Source: an uncultured Candidatus Saccharibacteria bacterium (GTDB lineage: Bacteria; Patescibacteriota; Minisyncoccia; Phycocordibacterales; UBA5272). From it: a stretch of 59,568 nucleotides of DNA. Below the pieces are notes generated by a model that saw only the letters and a program-made list of their open reading frames with translations, was not told where the DNA came from and ran no database searches. The position numbers were made by a program, and so were the translations under genes. Shown here piece by piece: positions 1-58,924 of this stretch (the first letter of the stretch is position 1; each line of letters starts with the position of its first letter). The DNA lies in NCBI GenBank assembly GCA_964406165.1, contig CAYOQQ010000003.1:1-59568 (forward strand), given 5' to 3'.

Positions 1-42
1 CTACACGCTACACGCTACACGCTACACGCTACACGCTACACG
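1..42. repeat. Tandem heptamer array (CTACACG)x6 abutting the pth -10 element at the contig start
   Basis: Six perfect head-to-tail CTACACG units at 1-42, followed by TTGTATACT. Confidence 0.95.
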
Positions 43-58
43 TTGTATACTACTCCTC

Positions 59-595
59 ATGACATTCACTCTTGTACCACTCGGTAATCCAGGCAGTAAG
101 TATGCCCGCACTCGTCATAATGTTGCGCGCGTTCTTCTTTCGATGATTCAAGATGAAGTAATGAAGATTTCATCGCTTGAGATTATGACTCCATCAACAT
201 ATATGAATGAAAGTGGCGTTGCTGTGCGAGAATATCTGCGCTATCACGAAGGGCGAGAGATTATTGTTATGTATGATGACAAAGATTTACCGTACGGAAC
301 ATTTCGCATCTCCTATGACAGGGGAGACGGTGGGCATAATGGGGTAAAGAGTATTATTGAAGCATTACAAAAGAAAGATTTTATTCGTATCCGTATTGGG
401 ATTGCACCACCTGAGATTGATGGGCAAATAGTTAAAGCTCCACACGGTGAAGCTGTACAAGGATATGTGATGGGTATAATTAATGAACGTGAAGAAGAGT
501 TACTGCGAGAGATAGCTGCAAAAGTACTCGGAAGTATCCGTACGATAACTGAATCAGGTTACCAAAAGGCCATGGAGGTGTATAATAGAATGTAA
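59..595 (+). CDS. pth: Peptidyl-tRNA hydrolase
   Basis: N-terminal LGNPGSKYARTRHNV and YMNESG motifs typical of Pth. TATACT at 46-51 lies 7 nt before the ATG. Confidence 0.9.
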   Translation: MTFTLVPLGNPGSKYARTRHNVARVLLSMIQDEVMKISSLEIMTPSTYMNESGVAVREYLRYHEGREIIVMYDDKDLPYGTFRISYDRGDGGHNGVKSIIEALQKKDFIRIRIGIAPPEIDGQIVKAPHGEAVQGYVMGIINEREEELLREIAAKVLGSIRTITESGYQKAMEVYNRM

Positions 596-621
596 TTATA
601 TAATAAGTAAAATAGTAGAGT

Positions 622-1548
622 ATGCCACCAAGACCACATCAACATCCTGTAGATAATAGAGGACATGGACATCATGATTTTAATGATAGTGCCCCGGTAC
701 CACTACAGAGTGAACTTGTAGTTCATGAAAAAATTGATGTTCCAGACCTCCCTCCGCTTTATCAAATCGCATATCAGGAAGCACAAAACGGTTTTGGGTC
801 ACGTATCGACATGTCTTCTTTTACTAATAGAAAAGATTTAGCAAAAGATGTTGCAAGTGTTCATAAAAAATTAGCAGAAATCCGAGATAGGTGTTTACAT
901 GGCACCGAACCAGAGAAAATGGCTGTAGTTCAGTCAGATATTTTCGAGCACATGCTTCATATGCATGTTACAGACGCTAGATGGTTTGGGGACAATGTAA
1001 AAAGTATCCTACCGTCAGTATATGACGACCTATTTAATGGTGTTGATCTTATTTTGGAACAAAATGTTGGAGAAGGGGCTTTTGCTTTTTCTTCACTTGC
1101 GGTGGATGCAACTTTTAGTGCTAAAGGTGCGGTAGAAAAAATAAGTAGAACAATGGAGCGTCTCCATGATGGGAAGTTAGGAAGGATAAAATATTTTCAA
1201 TCAGATGCAGCAAATTTTAAAGGAAGAATTGATGGTGTTCCCCAGTTTGTTATTGGAGTAGGAAGACCAGCATTGTTTGACATGGTTCGTCAATATGTAC
1301 AGCAAGGTGCAGTTCCAGAAATAAATCAAGAAGCAAGAAGAATGGTTCTGGAGCAGATCGAAAGACAGTCAGTCTATTATGCAAACTTTCTTTCTTCAAG
1401 AGGCTTTGGTGTGGAAGCATCTCATTATACCCGAGCTGGGGACATGGTAAGAAAAATCTTAACGGGAACGTCTCCTCTTACAAATAAAAAAGGTGTTGAT
1501 GAGGTGCATCATGCAATAATGGAGTGTTGCAAAATTAAGTCGTACTAA
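622..1548 (+). CDS. Hypothetical protein with a His-rich N-terminus
   Basis: Long ORF with host-like AT-rich codon usage. No recognisable motif. Confidence 0.6.
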   Translation: MPPRPHQHPVDNRGHGHHDFNDSAPVPLQSELVVHEKIDVPDLPPLYQIAYQEAQNGFGSRIDMSSFTNRKDLAKDVASVHKKLAEIRDRCLHGTEPEKMAVVQSDIFEHMLHMHVTDARWFGDNVKSILPSVYDDLFNGVDLILEQNVGEGAFAFSSLAVDATFSAKGAVEKISRTMERLHDGKLGRIKYFQSDAANFKGRIDGVPQFVIGVGRPALFDMVRQYVQQGAVPEINQEARRMVLEQIERQSVYYANFLSSRGFGVEASHYTRAGDMVRKILTGTSPLTNKKGVDEVHHAIMECCKIKSY

Positions 1549-1570
1549 GATGCTGTTCTTAGTGTAGTGA

Positions 1571-1613
1571 AATACAAAAGGCGGACGCGAAGCGTCCGCC
1601 TTTTGTATTTTTT
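1571..1613. terminator. Bidirectional intrinsic terminator between convergent genes
   Basis: Hairpin AAATACAAAAGGCGGACGC-GAA-GCGTCCGCCTTTTGTATTT, flanked by A and T runs. Confidence 0.8.
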
Positions 1614-1626
1614 AGCTACAGTCTGT

Positions 1627-55877: not shown

Positions 55878-55913
55878 CATTCACTTATAAATCACTAACC
55901 ATTAACTATTATC

Positions 55914-57416
55914 ATGTCAGTAGAAAAAATAATTCAAGAGCTTGAAGAAAAAATCGCACACGCACAAACAAAAGTCGAAGTCCAAGAAGTTGGGACTGTT
56001 GTTTCTGTTGGTGACGGTATTGCACGTGTTTCAGGACTTCTTTCTTGTGCGAGTCTTGAGGAAGTAACATTCTCTTCTGGTGCGCGAGGTCTTGCACTTA
56101 ACCTTGAAAGTGACATGGTGGGTGTGGTGATTGTAGATGGTGCTGACTTGGTGGCTGAAGGGCAGGAGGTTACTCGCACAAAGAGAGTGCTCTCTATTCC
56201 TGTTGGTGAGGCGCTCTTAGGCAGAGTGGTTGACCCACTTATGAAGCCGTTAGATGGTGAGCCGCTAACTGGACTTAACTCTCGAGAGCTTGTAGAAAAG
56301 ATTGCACCGGGAGTGATGGAGCGTGAGCCAGTTAATCAAGCGCTTCAGACAGGTATTAAGGCAATCGATGCCATGATACCAATTGGACGTGGACAGCGAG
56401 AACTTATCATTGGTGATCGCCAGACAGGTAAGACAACGATTGCAGTTGATACAATCATCAACCAAAAAGGGACAGGGGTTATTTGTGTCTATGTTGCAAT
56501 TGGTCAAAAGGAATCAAAGATTGCTCAGATTGTTGAGAAGCTCAAAGAAGCTGGCGCAATGGAATACACGGTCGTAGTTCTAGCTGGAGCATCACACTCT
56601 GCAACTCTCTCATACCTTGCACCGTACTCAGGAGTATCAATCGCAGAATATTTTATGAATCAGAAGAAAGATGTGCTCGTTGTATACGATGATCTTTCTA
56701 AGCATGCGGTTGCATATCGTGAAATGTCACTCCTCCTTAAGCGTCCACCAGGACGTGAAGCATATCCAGGAGATGTGTTCTATCTCCACTCACGTCTTCT
56801 TGAACGAGCGTGTCGTAGAAACGAAGAAGCAGGAGGAGGATCAATTACAGCACTTCCAATTATCGAAACACAAGCAGGGGACGTATCAGCGTATATCCCA
56901 ACGAATGTTATTTCTATTACAGACGGACAAATCTTCCTCGACGCTAACCTCTTCTATAAAGGTATGCGACCAGCGATTGATGTTGGGCTCTCGGTGTCAC
57001 GTGTAGGATCATCAGCGCAGACAAAAGCGATGAAGAAAAACGCTGGTAAGATGAAGCTCGCAATGGCCCAATACCGTGAACTCGAAAGTTTCTCACAATT
57101 CGATTCTGATCTTGATGCAGATACTAAGAAGACAATTGAACGAGGAAAGAGAACTGGAGAAATGCTCAAGCAGGGTAACGGTGCACCACTTTCTGTTGGT
57201 CTTCAGGTTGCTTCTATTTATGCAGCGAACAATGGCTTCCTTGACCCGATTACTCCACTGGAAGTAGTTGACTGGGAAAAGGGAATGCATACGTATATGC
57301 TAGCTTCTCACAGTGAGTTAATCGATAAGCTTGCAACTTCATGGTCAGACGAGCTTGAAGCTGGTATCAAAGAAGCACTCACCTCATACGCAGGAGTGTA
57401 CACAAAGCCAGAATAG
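55914..57416 (+). CDS. atpA: F0F1 ATP synthase subunit alpha
   Basis: GDRQTGKT Walker A, and the overall alpha-subunit pattern. Confidence 0.97.
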
Positions 57417-57469
57417 ATGAATGTAGAATTTTAAATTTATAATTTGAAATTTGAAATAGACTGAGTAAC

Positions 57470-58318
57470 ATGCAAACAAAAGCAATTAAAGAAAAAATCA
57501 AAAGTGTTGGTAATATCAAGAAGATCACCAAAACAATGGAGATGATTTCTGCTACCAAAATGAAGAAGGCAATTGATAGCACAATGCTTATTCGTCCATT
57601 CAAAACAGAAGCACAACACATTTTGCATGATATTTCACTCGAGCCGCATACACGACATCCTCTTTTAAATGAGAATGGTGTGCAGAAAGAACTTATTATT
57701 CTTATTTCTTCAAACAAAGGTTTGTGTGGGAGTTATAACGTTAACATCTATCGCAAATTAATCTCACTGTATAACGAAGAAGAGCGTAAGAATCTTCAAG
57801 TGATTGCGTTTGGTAAATATTCAGAAAAAATTGCTCGTAAACTAAATCTAGAAGTATTGGCATCTTTTAACGCATCACAAATAACAGGAGATGATGCTCA
57901 TGCTACTTCAACACTTATTGTGAATTGGTACAAGGAAAAGAAAATAGGGAAGGTTCGTATACTCTATACGCATTTTGTATCAGGAAGTACTTTTTCGCCA
58001 ACTGCTATTCAGTTGCTTCCGTTTTCATCAGAAGGCGAGCCAGACAGACTTGGTGAGCCTCGTTATGCATATGAGCCAGATCAAGATACAGTGCTTTCAA
58101 TGATTATCCCAATGATGCTCCACAATATAATCTATGGTGCGATTCTTGAGAGTTATGCATCAGAACATACTGCGCGTATGATAGCGATGAAGAATGCGAC
58201 AGATAATGCAAAGGAGCTCCAAGCTGACCTTAAGCTCTACTATAACCGCGCTCGCCAGGGTGCAGTAACACAAGAGATTGCTGAGATCTCTTCAGGGGCG
58301 CTCGCTCTTACACAATAA
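57470..58318 (+). CDS. atpG: F0F1 ATP synthase subunit gamma
   Basis: IKKITKTMEMISATKMKKA N-terminus and RQGAVTQEIAEISSGA C-terminus. Confidence 0.93.
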   Translation: MQTKAIKEKIKSVGNIKKITKTMEMISATKMKKAIDSTMLIRPFKTEAQHILHDISLEPHTRHPLLNENGVQKELIILISSNKGLCGSYNVNIYRKLISLYNEEERKNLQVIAFGKYSEKIARKLNLEVLASFNASQITGDDAHATSTLIVNWYKEKKIGKVRILYTHFVSGSTFSPTAIQLLPFSSEGEPDRLGEPRYAYEPDQDTVLSMIIPMMLHNIIYGAILESYASEHTARMIAMKNATDNAKELQADLKLYYNRARQGAVTQEIAEISSGALALTQ

Positions 58319-58320
58319 GT

Positions 58321-58884
58321 ATGAAAAAAATTCCTGACAACGCAACAAGAGTATTTGAAGGAGTAATTTTTGATGTGTATCATTGGCAGCAAGAAATGTT
58401 CGACGGGTCATTTGCAACCTTTGAAGCAATTCATAGAAAAGAAAGTGTTTCGATTGTTGCGGTTGTCGGAGACAAGATTATTGTTAATCATGAAGAACAG
58501 CCAACAAAGAGTCCTTTTGTGACTATTCCAGGAGGTAATGCGGACGGTGACTCAACACTCGATGCTGCAAAGCGAGAGCTCTTAGAAGAAACAGGGTATG
58601 CGGCCGAAGAATGGCAGGAGTGGTTCGTTGCGGATCCTTCAGGAATGTCAAAAGTAGAATGGGAAAATCATTTTTATATTGCAAAAAATTGTAAAAAGGT
58701 GAAAGAACAAGAATTAGATCCTGGAGAAAAAATTGAAGTCACCTTAGCAACATTTGAAGAATTTCTAGAGCTACGTAATCACAAAGATTTTAGAAACAAA
58801 GATTTAATCCCAATACTAGAAAAAGCATCGCAAAGTGAAGAAGAGAAACAAACATTAAAAGCATTACTCGGCATCACCACATAA
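58321..58884 (+). CDS. NUDIX hydrolase
   Basis: Nudix box GGNADGDSTLDAAKRELLEETGY. Confidence 0.85.
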   Translation: MKKIPDNATRVFEGVIFDVYHWQQEMFDGSFATFEAIHRKESVSIVAVVGDKIIVNHEEQPTKSPFVTIPGGNADGDSTLDAAKRELLEETGYAAEEWQEWFVADPSGMSKVEWENHFYIAKNCKKVKEQELDPGEKIEVTLATFEEFLELRNHKDFRNKDLIPILEKASQSEEEKQTLKALLGITT

Positions 58885-58924
58885 TCCGAGAAACACCAAC
58901 TTACTAAACTAATTACTAACCACT

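Follow-up and report, generated by a model that had tools for sequence, protein, structure and literature searches.

The window (the whole 59,568-nt stretch that we analysed) carries arrays of seven-base units, hairpins and promoters in the spacers between its genes (Table 1). The genes that flank the arrays are pth, gyrA, a methyltransferase, a tRNA synthetase, transketolase, mnmA, fur and the atp operon, and we found no link between the arrays and the functions of these genes.

Table 1. Arrays, hairpins and promoters in the window (nt positions; mfe values in kcal/mol; a dot marks features without a strand).
Position	Strand	Feature	Details
1-42	+	(CTACACG)x6	100% match in Tandem Repeats Finder; cut by contig start; followed by TTG, TATACT (46-51), ATG 59 (pth)
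1563-1626	.	Bidirectional terminator AAATACAAAAGGCGGACGC...GCGTCCGCCTTTTGTATTTTTT	Between convergent genes; short arms TGTAGTG (1563-1569) and CTACAGTCTGT (1616-1626); spacer mfe -38.7
5656-5688	+	Left arm, N4-TAG family, ACTGTAG TCAGTAG ACTGTAG ACCGTAG	Begins 5 nt after hydrolase gene stop codon
5774-5801	+	Right arm CTACAGG CTAAGGT CTACAGT CTAC	TATACT (5809-5814) 7 nt downstream
9109-9135	.	Terminator hairpin AAAAGCGCGACCTAAGGCCGCGCTTTC	Downstream of gyrA
9139-9182	+	Promoter module	TCCACT box 9139-9144, four CTACnnn units 9146-9175, TATACT 9177-9182, ATG 9189
9725-9922	.	Near-perfect ~200-nt hairpin	Few CAGAC-type heptamers at both ends; spacer mfe -98.9
9930-9966	+	All-heptad promoter TCCACTA GCCACTC TCCACTA GCCACTA TATACTG	One register; TATACT 9961-9966, ATG 9974
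16034-16054	+	Left arm AGACTGT AGTTATT AGACTGT	Weakly periodic; begins 6 nt after pilin-like gene stop codon
16058-16090	.	Core hairpin AATTCAATACCGACCATTTTGGTCGGTATTGAA	Without T-tract
16103-16134	+	Right arm CTACAAA CTACAGT CTACAGA CTAAAGT	Identical in L081, L082; TATAAT 16144-16149, ATG 16158 (class II tRNA synthetase gene)
34736-34776	+	Single array CTACAGG CTACAGT CTACGGT CTAAAGG into CTGTATACT	TATACT 34771-34776, ATG 34786 (transketolase N)
36775-36803	+	Left arm ACTGTAG ACATTAG TCTGTAG ACTGTAG	Begins 2 nt after transketolase C stop codon
36880-36892	+	Short right arm CTACAGTCTACC	Before stop codon of convergent PfkB kinase gene; too short to test alone
49084-49114	+	Left arm ACTTTAG ACCTTAG CCTGTAG ACTGTAA	mnmA TAG stop codon (49085-49087) is first anchor
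49178-49210	+	Right arm with perfect (CTACAGT)x3 at 49186-49206	Overlaps stop codon of convergent gene
50419-50454	.	A+T-only period-7 array, TTTAAAA type	Self-complementary; p 0.012
54693-54726	+	TAACTAA/CAACTAT array	Ends 8 nt before atpE start codon; no Shine-Dalgarno
54953-55018	.	Inverted pair (AGGTTAT)x3 / (CTACAAC-type)x4	Fills atpE-atpF spacer; no separate core hairpin; inverted arms of another word here in L205 (identical AtpE)
55878-55913	+	G-poor leader CACTTAT AAATCAC TAACCAT TAACTAT	Weakly periodic, p 0.0025; directly upstream of atpA; unstructured, mfe 0.0
57427-57457	+	A+T-rich array, AATTTGA type	atpA-atpG spacer

The period-7 signal

We called an array in the window when at least 15 of 21 positions matched at lag 7, and took the expectation from shuffles. 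With this threshold, the intergenic DNA holds 13 period-7 arrays against 0.12 expected, and other periods give 0–1 arrays each, except for period 14, the double of 7, which gives 7 arrays. All of the arrays are non-coding and none lies inside a gene of the window; the sole seeming exception, at 5774-5801, is likely upstream of the true start, ATG 5832, which TGTATACT precedes.

The original prediction listed 19 intervals with strict 7-nt periodicity, and Tandem Repeats Finder recovers period-7 arrays at almost every one of them. Fifteen of the 19 are periodic at lag 7 (shuffle p <=0.003) and four are weak, but strictness holds only for 1-42 and 49186-49206, as the other arrays match at 73–94%. 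Periodicity is weak at 16034-16061, 50408-50460 and 54690-54734 (p 0.03-0.008), and is not significant against shuffles at 36880-36898 (p 0.10) and 58885-58924 (p 0.18). What had been described as a CAGAC-type array at 9725-9922 shows no periodicity over its full length (p 0.05). This is a long hairpin whose ends carry a few such units; it has no Rfam match and differs by 0.5% between strains.

The seven-base arrays between genes are real. Assembly artefacts had been raised as a concern, but independent assemblies from other samples are 100% identical through the arrays (L081, L082, L083, L084, L209). A search beyond the listed loci had also been proposed, and we found the enrichment in the non-coding DNA of 81 related Paceibacteria sequences, with 50 period-7 arrays per 100 kb compared to 6-18 for the remaining periods in the range 4 to 13 (a 3-8x excess over any of them). 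Coding DNA of the same sequences shows multiples of 3 only. The word families of the arrays occur in about one fifth of intergenic spacers and never in genes.

Word families, hairpins and promoters

Each locus was thought to have its own word. Instead, the array words belong to a few genome-wide families and are not locus-specific: ten sites share the AGACTGT/CTACAGT family with its variants and two have CTACACG. Among the non-A/T 7-mers of non-coding DNA, AGACTGT and its rotations show the strongest over-representation (15 non-coding versus 3 coding occurrences, 23-fold by density). The commonest form of a word is N4-TAG / CTA-N4 (AGACTGT/CTACAGT, CTACACG, GGTTATA/CTACAAC, CCACTAG), and a few families are A+T-only. 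The anchor TAG is twofold better conserved than the rest of the heptamer: mismatch to the consensus is 0.13-0.15 at its T, A and G and 0.26-0.30 at the other four positions. TAG/CTA ranks first in conservation among trinucleotides in 24 of 109 arrays, where the background is 8% (p 9e-6). A multi-unit block, AGACCTTAGCCTGTAG, is common to the loci at 49084 and 5774 (reverse complement). The A+T-only array at 50419-50454 lies between a Fur-family gene and a peroxiredoxin gene, and may be a Fur/PerR-type operator instead of a heptamer array.

The arrays do form inverted pairs, as predicted. With at least 17 of 21 matches, 37 of the 109 arrays have an inverted partner and 5 a direct one, and within 200 nt the inverted partner is 7 times commoner. 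One word family, in opposite orientations, is usually found on both sides of a spacer. Given such partners, the whole spacer can indeed fold as one long hairpin, and the folds are far better than those of shuffles at 16029-16140 (z -7.6) and 49084-49210 (z -4.7). The proposed GC-richer core hairpin applies to about half of the inverted pairs across species and not to the remainder: the inner part exceeds the arms in G+C in 17/29 pairs and folds with z < -2 in 15/29, and a terminator-like hairpin sits inside about half. Cognate arms pair no better than arms from different loci (-26.8 vs -30.4 kcal/mol), so the complementarity of arms comes from their common word family. Arms can also be unequal, with 4 vs 1.5 units at 36775/36880 and 2.5 vs 8 units in L083, a longer contig that has 8 CTACACG copies and a short inverted arm, GTAGCGTGTAGCGTGTAG, ~90 nt upstream.

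The statement that arrays often end at the -10 box stands, since the array abuts or overlaps the hexamer in 12 of 17 leaderless-type cases. An upstream array is present in 17 of 73 genes with a leaderless-type -10 versus 25 of 350 other genes (odds ratio 3.9, p 1.4e-4). These -10 boxes have no -35 box, give leaderless-type mRNA starts and are in register with the heptads upstream; array orientation is biased upstream of starts (14 vs 32, p 0.011). We saw no enrichment of sigma-70 -35/-10 elements (43 found, 45 expected). A role as UP-element surrogate does not fit the composition, as CTACACG is 57% G+C.

Slippage as a possible origin, and its limits

Heptanucleotide STRR/long SSRs, which the original prediction took to be undescribed, are known from cyanobacteria, Xanthomonas and Beggiatoaceae (PMC2670836, PMC4692102, PMC4679880). 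The cyanobacterial ones include hairpin-forming repeats in intergenic spacers (PMC2670836). According to PMC4679880 and PMC4692102, Mrazek 2007 found heptamers to be the commonest long SSR of many bacteria and proposed that polymerase slippage causes them. For Patescibacteria the feature does seem new, and we found no literature report of heptamer arrays in this group.

Among the roles first listed we prefer products of slippage, and give about an even chance to the arrays being slippage-driven heptanucleotide microsatellites of the STRR/long-SSR type in a Paceibacteria (Patescibacteria/CPR) genome. Replication slippage would create arrays and turn them over through gain and loss of units, and an array could change in all its units at once. 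Since 7 is not divisible by 3, genes would be purged of arrays, and the arrays would accumulate where the sequence is otherwise free. They may be tolerated, and partly constrained, beside terminators and upstream of promoters without a -35 box. Having the same family in both orientations would make the arms complementary and the terminator stem longer by 15-30 bp. This lengthening is probably a side effect, and any benefit (insulation, termination in both directions or constant spacing ahead of the -10) would be secondary at most. Local constraints would preserve unit number and the TAG/CTA (or ACT) anchor, and let the other positions drift.

Period specificity and intergenic location count for slippage, as do the unequal arms, cognate pairing that is no better than pairing between loci, the missing link to gene function and the heptamer precedent in other bacteria. 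So do the differences seen on comparing orthologous spacers, another proposed check: both copy number and word vary among relatives. The pth promoter has 8 units here (full length from L083) and ~4 in L003. In the hydrolase spacer we count 4 units in the window against 2-3 in L001, and L008 uses a different word. The spacer ahead of the tRNA synthetase gene holds one word in the window, a second in L005 and a third in L027, and no array in L003, L004, L009, L011 and L018. All four CCACT units of the 9930 promoter are CCCCT-type in L005, a concerted change that we also count for slippage. Perfect runs point to recent expansion ((CTACACG)x8 in L083, (CTACAGT)x3 in the window, (CATCAGC)x8 in L011), and assemblies break inside arrays (the window start, L084, which starts within the CTACACG array, and L208).

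Other observations count against slippage. Pure slippage explains neither period 7 alone nor the patchiness of arrays among close relatives, and we saw no copy-number difference among near-identical strains (L081-L084 and L209 match the window exactly). Multi-unit blocks common to several loci suggest more than independent slippage at each, namely that the loci exchanged sequence or share an ancestor. The array at 9146 retained all 4 units and its CTAC anchors across a recombined tract whose synonymous divergence is 8.4%, although 6 of its 12 variable positions changed. This constancy, anchor conservation, the orientation bias and the -10 register argue that the arrays are not drifting freely. 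A dedicated factor may bind them. A type of repeat long known from cyanobacteria and a few further bacteria, where it has never been explained, is found here in a new lineage, with some new regularities.

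Period-7 arrays in the window and its relatives

The GyrA encoded in the window (Table) has 85–93% identity to proteins from MAGs with the labels Paceibacterota, Nomurabacteria and Parcubacteria; on this basis we place the window in a Patescibacteria (CPR) genome of the class Paceibacteria. The window has 41% G+C, its GC skew is positive throughout and its genes are almost all on the plus strand. Its non-coding DNA contains tandem 7-nt repeats, which we call arrays. The non-coding DNA has autocorrelation maxima at lags of 7, 14 and 21 nt, and the coding DNA only at multiples of 3. 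With a threshold of 15 matches out of 21 at lag 7, we counted 13 arrays in intergenic DNA vs 0.12 in shuffles, and the same threshold gave 0–1 arrays at the other periods between 4 and 13 and 7 at period 14. Every window array is non-coding. One of them (5774-5801) seemingly lies inside an ORF at 5766-6272; it is followed by CTTGCTGTATACT, and the GTG start of this ORF is an over-extension of a gene that likely begins at ATG 5832.

The original prediction had named 19 intervals with strict 7-nt periodicity. Tandem Repeats Finder reports arrays at almost every one of these sites, and 15 of the 19 are periodic at p <=0.003. The periodicity did not hold up for 36880-36898, for 58885-58924 or for the whole of 9725-9922 (p 0.05), and it is weak in 16034-16061, 50408-50460 and 54690-54734. 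"Strict" is too strong a word for all but two of the intervals, 1-42 and 49186-49206.

We compared the window with the gyrA neighbourhood of 80 species representatives, which makes 81 sequences with 1.46 Mb, 218 kb of them non-coding; the gene order round gyrA is kept in the closest 14 relatives. The non-coding DNA of this set has 50 period-7 arrays per 100 kb (6–18 for the other periods between 4 and 13, 30 for period 14), and its coding DNA has 3.9 per 100 kb. The period-7 enrichment thus extends past the loci named at the outset and the feature stands. Its occurrence is patchy, with at least 2 arrays in 21 of the 81 sequences and an array in 16–25% of the spacers of those sequences. By spacer type, the share with an array is 25% for tandem, 17% for divergent and 16% for convergent spacers, and we rejected the idea that their presence is tied to spacer type.

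There is some reason to ask whether the arrays are assembly artefacts, made by repeat collapse, expansion or chimeras. The window begins in an array and ends in adapter sequence: it holds AATGATACGGCGACCACCGAGATCTACAC near its end (Table), which we take to be the Illumina P5 adapter, and for this reason we regard its 3' end, inside atpD, as chimeric. Further contigs break within arrays (L084 and L208 start inside one, as the window does), so the copy numbers of perfect runs in these assemblies are untrustworthy. One comparison contig that reaches past the window start, L083, has (CTACACG)x8 where the window has 6 copies, and beyond an A+T-rich hairpin it has a short inverted arm (GTAGCGTGTAGCGTGTAG). 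However, five contigs from four other samples (L081, L082, L083, L084 and L209) are 100% identical to the window through the arrays, and dozens of independently assembled species carry orthologous arrays. These two observations refute the idea that the arrays exist only through assembly. At most the perfect-run copy numbers may be wrong, and we put the chance that the arrays are artefacts at practically nil.

We saw no array length polymorphism among the near-identical strains that exact-protein look-ups retrieved (one look-up had no hit): the five contigs just named are identical and three others (L206-L208) have substitutions only. In these three, the methyltransferase protein is identical to that of the window, while its gene differs by 8.4–9.0%, all of it synonymous, and the flanking genes and spacers differ by 0–1.7%. 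Because the gene has diverged while its flanks are nearly identical, we conclude that the methyltransferase region is a recombined tract, the left edge of which falls at a heptamer array. Across the tract this array has kept its four units, its length and three of its four CTAC anchors (the fourth is ATAC), and 6 of its 12 variable positions have changed. Between species the number of units at orthologous sites does differ, with 8 vs about 4 at the pth promoter and 4 vs 2–3 at site 5656. A contig from another species (L205; 85% nucleotide identity, identical AtpE) has two inverted heptamer arms in the atpE-atpF spacer, made of another word (AAAGTnn/AACTTTn).

Positions of repeat-associated and neighbouring features (window coordinates unless a comparison contig is named)
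Position	Feature	Detail
46-58	Leaderless-type -10 box	
1549-1626	Spacer on inverted-arm plan	
1570-1613	Intrinsic-terminator form	Basal motif
1616	(G/T)TAG at hairpin foot	
2737-3541	No ORF of at least 80 aa	805 nt; 36-nt repeat in common with 4329-5006 (94% identity)
4329-5006	No ORF of at least 80 aa	678 nt
5652-5801	Spacer on inverted-arm plan	
5688	(G/T)TAG at hairpin foot	
6411-8885	gyrA	
9109-9135	Intrinsic-terminator form	
9139-9182	TCCACT-TATACT motif	
9139-9713	Methyltransferase region	Probable recombined tract
9177-9188	Leaderless-type -10 box	
9714-9973	260-nt spacer holding the hairpin 9725-9922	-98.9 kcal/mol
9725-9922	Near-perfect hairpin of ~200 nt	Between methyltransferase and substrate-binding genes; no Rfam match
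9933-9966	TCCACT-TATACT motif	
9961-9973	Leaderless-type -10 box	
13208	Clear GGAGG	
13859	Clear GGAGG	
14445-16028	Four small tandem paralogues (pilin-like)	88-128 aa
16029-16140	Spacer on inverted-arm plan	
16058-16090	Core hairpin	No T-tract
16144-16157	Leaderless-type -10 box	
27118-27132	Leaderless-type -10 box	
34771-34785	Leaderless-type -10 box	
36774-36897	Spacer on inverted-arm plan	
36803	(G/T)TAG at hairpin foot	
~36806-36868	Intrinsic-terminator form	Basal motif
40440	Clear GGAGG	
41596	Clear GGAGG	Minus strand
46307-46324	Leaderless-type -10 box	
49084-49210	Spacer on inverted-arm plan	
49114	(G/T)TAG at hairpin foot	
~49118-49170	Intrinsic-terminator form	Basal motif
49979-50961	Fur-family gene, array, peroxiredoxin gene	
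50419-50454	Array between these two genes	A+T-only, self-complementary, period 7
50488-50505	Leaderless-type -10 box	
58321-58884	NUDIX-domain gene	Within atp operon, between atpG and atpD
59536-59564	AATGATACGGCGACCACCGAGATCTACAC	Presumed Illumina P5 adapter
L073 2756-2971	Element of ~215 nt	TCGAAAT-type arms
L073 3519-3733	Element of ~215 nt	TCGAAAT-type arms; 760 nt from the other, inner sequence closely similar

The genes that flank repeats are pth, an S1-domain protein, gyrA, the methyltransferase, an ABC substrate-binding protein, the four pilin-like genes, a class II tRNA synthetase, rpe, a split transketolase, a PfkB kinase, mnmA, fur, peroxiredoxin and the atp operon, which are ordinary housekeeping genes of all sorts. 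Relatives carry 2 to 4 of the pilin-like paralogues; in L081 the last of them matches T4SS_pilin (PF18895) and the second is a weak match. The A+T-only array between fur and peroxiredoxin may be a Fur/PerR-type operator, apart from the general phenomenon. We also note that Rfam gave no match on 2700-10000 at E up to 0.1, and that at gathering thresholds the only family it found was a tRNA. The long hairpin downstream of the methyltransferase gene has 0.5% strain divergence vs 8.4% in the adjoining gene, and a related right arm is found in one relative (L005).

Word families, anchors and inverted arms

The prediction that each locus has a different word was wrong. Ten window sites share one family, and two share CTACACG. 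The main family is ACTGTAG, with the variants TCAGTAG, ACCGTAG, ACCTTAG, CCTGTAG, ACTTTAG, TCTGTAG and ACATTAG, and its rotation AGACTGT (counted with all rotations) is 10–23 times denser in non-coding than in coding window DNA. The other window families are CCACTAG, GGTTATA/CTACAAC, TAACTAA/CAACTAT and two A+T-only words. Families in relatives include CTAGAAG (L072), CTAATnn (L033), ACTGCnn and GACTTTA (L010), TAACTAT and CCCCTAA (L027) and CATCAGC, in eight copies (L011). Related genomes have families in common at different loci, and at one site where the window has AGACTGT a relative (L008) has the GGTTnTA/CTACAAC family.

A metagenome scan for (CTACAGT)3 returned at least 120 contigs (L085-L204) with 3 to 16 or more copies, in which variant units keep CAGT or CTA. 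Since their G+C spans 0.26 to 0.65, these contigs belong to many unrelated organisms, and we rejected the word as a marker of the window's lineage. An ACTG/CAGT core recurs in heptamer words across phyla, as in ACTGTAG from the window and in TAACTGA. The cyanobacterial words CCCCAGT and CAACAGT reportedly hold it too.

In the main window family TAG is almost invariant and the remaining four positions vary. This anchor, TAG or CTA depending on the strand, is in the consensus of 53 of the 109 non-coding arrays of the 81 sequences, and these 53 come from 18 sequences. Mismatch to the consensus in the 53 arrays is 0.13–0.15 at T, A and G and 0.26–0.30 at the other four positions. A ranking of all trinucleotides by conservation has TAG and CTA at the top and ACT third, and TAG/CTA is the best-conserved trinucleotide in 24 of the 109 arrays, against a background of 8.3% (p 9e-6). 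Families without TAG also exist in array-rich genomes (CGAAATn, GAATATn and A+T-only words). We found no description of a conserved TAG/CTA anchor in the papers on heptamer repeats that we consulted.

Because 7 mod 3 is 1, an N4-TAG array has a stop codon in every frame, and arrays after genes might therefore be three-frame stop modules that release ribosomes which read through or have shifted frame. The conserved core is indeed TAG, and in a first test the stops after genes were 30 sense vs 8 antisense. This signal came from the selection of cases, which took in arrays containing the gene's own stop codon; once they are left out, the counts are 13 vs 8 (p 0.38). In addition, the variants of the anchor have no bias towards stops (TAA 13, TGG 13, CAG 11, AAG 9), and identical words occur before genes and on the opposite strand. 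We rejected this idea as highly improbable.

Inverted orientation is frequent. An inverted copy of the array's own unit (at least 17 of 21 matches, 10–200 nt away) accompanies 37 of the 109 arrays and a direct copy only 5, while 65 are unpaired. The 31 inverted pairs are spread over about 20 species. Typically the left arm begins 0–20 nt past a stop codon and the right arm runs to between a few and 40 nt before the next start. For the 29 pairs whose inner part we analyzed, it folds with z < -2 in 15, has an A-run in 17 and has a T-run of at least 4 T in 13. The core hairpin had been described as GC-richer, which is so in 17 of the 29 pairs, where the inner part is GC-richer than the arms, and not in the remaining ones. 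Five window spacers follow the inverted-arm plan (Table), and folding of the whole spacer at 16029-16140 and 49084-49210 gives z -4.7 to -7.6 against shuffles. Four hairpins have the form of an intrinsic terminator, a G+C-rich stem-loop with a T-tract. Array-flanked terminators of the window and of L001, L005, L007 and L011 have a basal motif, (A)AATAC(A/G)AA, then the G+C-rich stem-loop, then TT(C/T)GTATTT(T), that is missing from array-free terminators.

These hairpins could matter at the RNA level. The arms would lengthen terminator stems, and double-stranded stems made by read-through would terminate transcription both ways or be cut (by RNase III, say), so that stem formation would insulate the neighbouring genes of a very compact genome. 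Inverted partners are 7 times commoner than direct ones, the arms of about half of the pairs surround a core that folds strongly, in many cases with an A-tract and a T-tract, the whole-spacer z scores are low, and like roles in transcript stability and termination have been proposed for STRR hairpins of cyanobacteria (PMC2670836). However, if transcription ends at the core's T-tract, the right arm is left untranscribed, and since the downstream mRNA has no leader either, RNA would rarely contain the long stem. The arms of a pair are often unequal in length, most arrays have no partner at all, and divergent spacers, which need no terminator, carry arrays about as often as convergent ones. Also, arms from the same locus pair no better (-26.8 kcal/mol) than arms from different loci (-30.4 kcal/mol) in a comparison that covers only 4 loci. 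We consider an RNA-level role unlikely.

The pairing energies indicate that arm complementarity comes from the use of one family in two orientations and not from locus-specific compensation. Template-switch (quasi-palindrome) mutations, which create reverse-complement copies and hairpins, would explain an array's mirror copy across the hairpin (10.1101/2021.04.15.439925). Such a step is unsupported in our data because we found no locus-specific matching of arms, and the same four loci give local co-evolution of the arms no support.

Mobile elements like REP/REPINs or MITEs could also spread such repeats: a RAYT (an HUH tyrosine transposase) would spread GTAG-tagged palindromes, with the heptads as repeats of the GTAG tag or as terminal inverted repeats. 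The anchor is mostly (G/T)TAG and stands right at the hairpin foot (GTAG followed by CTAAATAC or by CTTTTAATAC) in the window and in L001, L005 and L011, where, unlike in REPs, it is repeated every 7 nt. Most REP families have GTAG as their tag, and they are also found downstream of genes as inverted dimers 20–100 bp apart (PMC3733652). Like our arrays, REP, BIME and REPIN sequences are intergenic, mostly downstream of genes, often with inverted dimers that fold into larger hairpins, and they form genome-specific families with GTAG at the hairpin foot (PMC3733652). Different loci have multi-unit blocks in common, and two elements in L073 (Table) are alike in inner sequence; this pair, the only repeated core we saw, may be a MITE-like element or a local duplication. 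On the other hand, an all-against-all BLAST of the window spacers finds likeness only in the arrays and a few adjoining bases. Each core is unique, whereas REP families are defined by a conserved palindromic body, and for the window we rejected a mobile element with a conserved core. Tandem heptads are no REP feature, the window proteins scanned include no transposase, and we saw no target-site duplications. We judge an origin from such elements to be very unlikely.

Arrays before predicted leaderless promoters

Many genes lack a Shine-Dalgarno sequence and have TATACT or TATAAT ending 4–12 nt before the ATG; we predict leaderless mRNAs for them. Other genes have a clear GGAGG (Table). Among the array-rich sequences, 73 of 423 genes have a leaderless-type -10 box, and an array lies between -60 and -10 in 23% of these vs 7% of the others (odds ratio 3.9, p 1.4e-4). 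Arrays had been predicted to end often at the -10 box, and they do: the hexamer is abutted or overlapped in 12 of 17 leaderless-type cases, and in 7 of the 17 the periodicity continues through it. At four promoters TGTATACT comes after the array. The sense strand before starts carries CTA/ACT-type words (p 0.011). Canonical sigma-70 -35/-10 pairs are not enriched (43 found vs 45.2 expected), and the suggestion that arrays are UP elements fails, as they are too poor in A+T to resemble them.

Many species have kept a two-part promoter-like motif that consists of a TCCACT box, a gap, TATACT, about 7 nt and the ATG. The gap is 22 nt in 13 cases, 21 nt in 4 and 32 nt, one helical turn longer, in 3. 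Besides two sites in the window, the motif is found in L003, L004, L007, L009-L012, L018, L027, L030, L049 and L076, mostly before methyltransferase and ABC substrate-binding genes. Several species have heptads throughout the gap, in register with both boxes, as in [TCCACTA][GCCACTC][TCCACTA][GCCACTA][TATACTG], and in other species a gap of equal length is non-repetitive. The L005 promoter has CCCCT in all four units where others have CCACT, a concerted change.

One explanation for this arrangement is that the arrays derive from the promoter as tandem copies of a -10-like heptad (TAnnnT or nnnACTn). Their role would be to fix the distance from the upstream box to the -10, to provide proto-promoters or to serve as evolvable tuning knobs, for which the upstream 7-bp repeats of the Haemophilus influenzae hmw genes are the model. 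The enrichment at leaderless -10 boxes and the contact with the hexamer fit this, as do the fixed gap, the strand preference of the words, the TGTATACT after arrays and the whole promoters that can be read as five heptads. But many arrays lie away from promoters (within the atp operon, in convergent spacers, or as left arms past stop codons), the genes are housekeeping genes and not contingency loci, and unit number is conserved, not variable, where a comparison is possible. Promoter origin or tuning thus seems to us unlikely as the general explanation.

Another possibility is that the arrays are phased binding sites: at gene boundaries they would be coated by a DNA-binding protein that recognizes a 3-bp core (CTA/TAG or ACT) once per 7 bp. 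By analogy, the ribbon-helix-helix protein omega of pSM19035 (omega/ParB) binds contiguous 7-bp heptads, direct and inverted, at promoters and needs at least 4 of them (PMC9499535). The heptad operators (parS) have 4–10 contiguous units per site in direct and inverted orientation in promoter regions (PMC9499535), and at the level of sequence our arrays are alike in having at least 4 contiguous 7-bp units at promoters. Typically they have 3–5 units in both orientations. Conservation of the core trinucleotide is twice that of the remaining four positions, anchors and unit number have survived high neutral divergence, arrays concentrate at -10 boxes and are in register with them, and genome-specific, patchy families would be expected of a factor that is gained, lost or co-evolving. 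Unlike the few plasmid sites of pSM19035, which have one word and a known cognate protein, there would be hundreds of chromosomal sites here, with several words and no known protein. Several unrelated families occur per genome, some of them without TAG, and arrays adjoin every kind of housekeeping gene. The 50 window proteins that we scanned, a small part of the genome, include no match to ribbon-helix-helix families and no RAYT (Y1 HUH transposase). The anchor can be explained equally well by slippage mechanics, in which the 3' end must re-pair. We regard phased binding sites as possible, if doubtful.

Comparison with known heptamer repeats and significance

The original prediction took the arrays for an undescribed feature. 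Heptamer repeats are in fact known in cyanobacteria, Xanthomonas/Nostoc and Beggiatoaceae, and it is only for Patescibacteria or CPR that our literature search returned no paper linking the group with such repeats. In heterocystous cyanobacteria (Calothrix, Nostoc/Anabaena) STRRs are likewise tandem 7-nt units of few families in many intergenic spacers (PMC2670836, PMC4692102), and their inverted orientation gives hairpins, as between hupS and hupL and upstream of hoxW (PMC2670836). The function of these hairpin-forming 7-bp spacer repeats is unexplained, and transcript stability or termination has been proposed (PMC2670836).

Our arrays, in a different phylum, agree with STRRs and other long SSRs in having three or more head-to-tail 7-nt units beyond chance, in their confinement to non-coding DNA with a preference for period 7, and in the dispersal of a few word families over many loci (AGACTGT at 10 sites, CTACACG at 2). 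The classical STRR words of Mazel et al. 1990, reportedly CCCCAGT, TTGGTCA and CAACAGT, are missing from the arrays here; they define cyanobacterial families only. We know of no report for STRRs of a TAG/CTA anchor, of arrays that flank intrinsic terminators or of a register with leaderless -10 boxes.

In many bacteria no class of long SSR is as abundant as heptamers, for which polymerase slippage has been put forward as the cause (Mrazek 2007, as cited in PMC4679880). The GGGAATC heptamers of Xanthomonas and GGGGA(C/T)T heptamers of Nostoc (Rehm et al. 2015) lie near ORF ends, sometimes in inverted pairs, and related strains differ in repeat length and sequence in the same spacers (PMC4692102). 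Our arrays are like them in the over-representation of heptamers, the strong non-coding bias, the position near ORF ends and the inverted pairs (PMC4692102). Unlike those G-rich, quadruplex-forming repeats, for which four units are preferred, the arrays here are not G-rich and cannot form G4, and they are not under-represented in divergent spacers as the repeats of Xanthomonas and Nostoc are. In marine Beggiatoaceae, 2–6 copies of TAACTGA stand right before starts without a Shine-Dalgarno sequence, those of essential genes included (MacGregor 2015; PMC4679880). The atp-operon arrays look similar and are equally G-poor: atpE, atpA and atpD have array-adjoining starts without Shine-Dalgarno, with TAACTAA, CAACTAT and CAACTGA before atpE and similar words before atpA in place of TAACTGA repeats. 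The Beggiatoaceae have one dominant word, nearly always forward, with one indirect (inverted) repeat set reported, whereas we find several families and frequent inverted pairs.

We read the arrays as slippage-driven heptamer microsatellites, because the known heptamer repeats of other bacteria are the same kind of feature. They would accumulate where compact genomes tolerate them, which is on the flanks of terminators and in the stretch before leaderless promoters that have no -35 box, with the long hairpins arising mainly as a by-product. Some constraint does act on the arrays, given the anchor, the preserved number of units and the shared register with the -10 box. Judging by these sequence patterns, its source could be promoter geometry, slippage mechanics or a factor recognizing a 3-bp core once per 7 bp. 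Such a factor has precedents in the omega heptads (PMC9499535) and, more loosely, in RAYT at GTAG-tagged REPs (PMC3733652).

A more far-reaching reading, which we offer tentatively and think doubtful, is that phased heptads with a CTA/TAG or ACT core per 7 bp are gene-boundary punctuation of the Paceibacteria, read by a dedicated factor. By analogy the factor might be a DNA-binding protein, either ribbon-helix-helix like omega or of another type, or else an HUH nuclease that works at GTAG beside the hairpins in the way of RAYTs at REPs. It rests on the anchor, on the unit number kept at high neutral divergence, on the -10 register and on the patchy, genome-specific families. If it is true, the heptads would both mark terminator-promoter junctions and insulate them, and would also fix how leaderless promoters without a -35 box are spaced, and the arrays would be kept for function and would not be mere slippage debris.

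In practice, the arrays break short-read assemblies, with contig ends inside them, and can mislead start-codon calling, as with 5766 vs 5832. On our reading as microsatellites, what is new is a known, still unexplained kind of repeat in a lineage with no earlier report of it. More than 30 years after STRRs were described, nobody to our knowledge knows why the unit is 7 or whether arrays do anything. Patescibacteria add an independent lineage with very compact genomes and heavy sampling, and in its array-rich genomes about one fifth of the spacers have arrays. Comparisons are thereby opened across thousands of MAGs: of the TAG/CTA anchor with its four free positions, of unit number over a diverged tract, of the register with leaderless -10 boxes and of the mirror arms round terminators.
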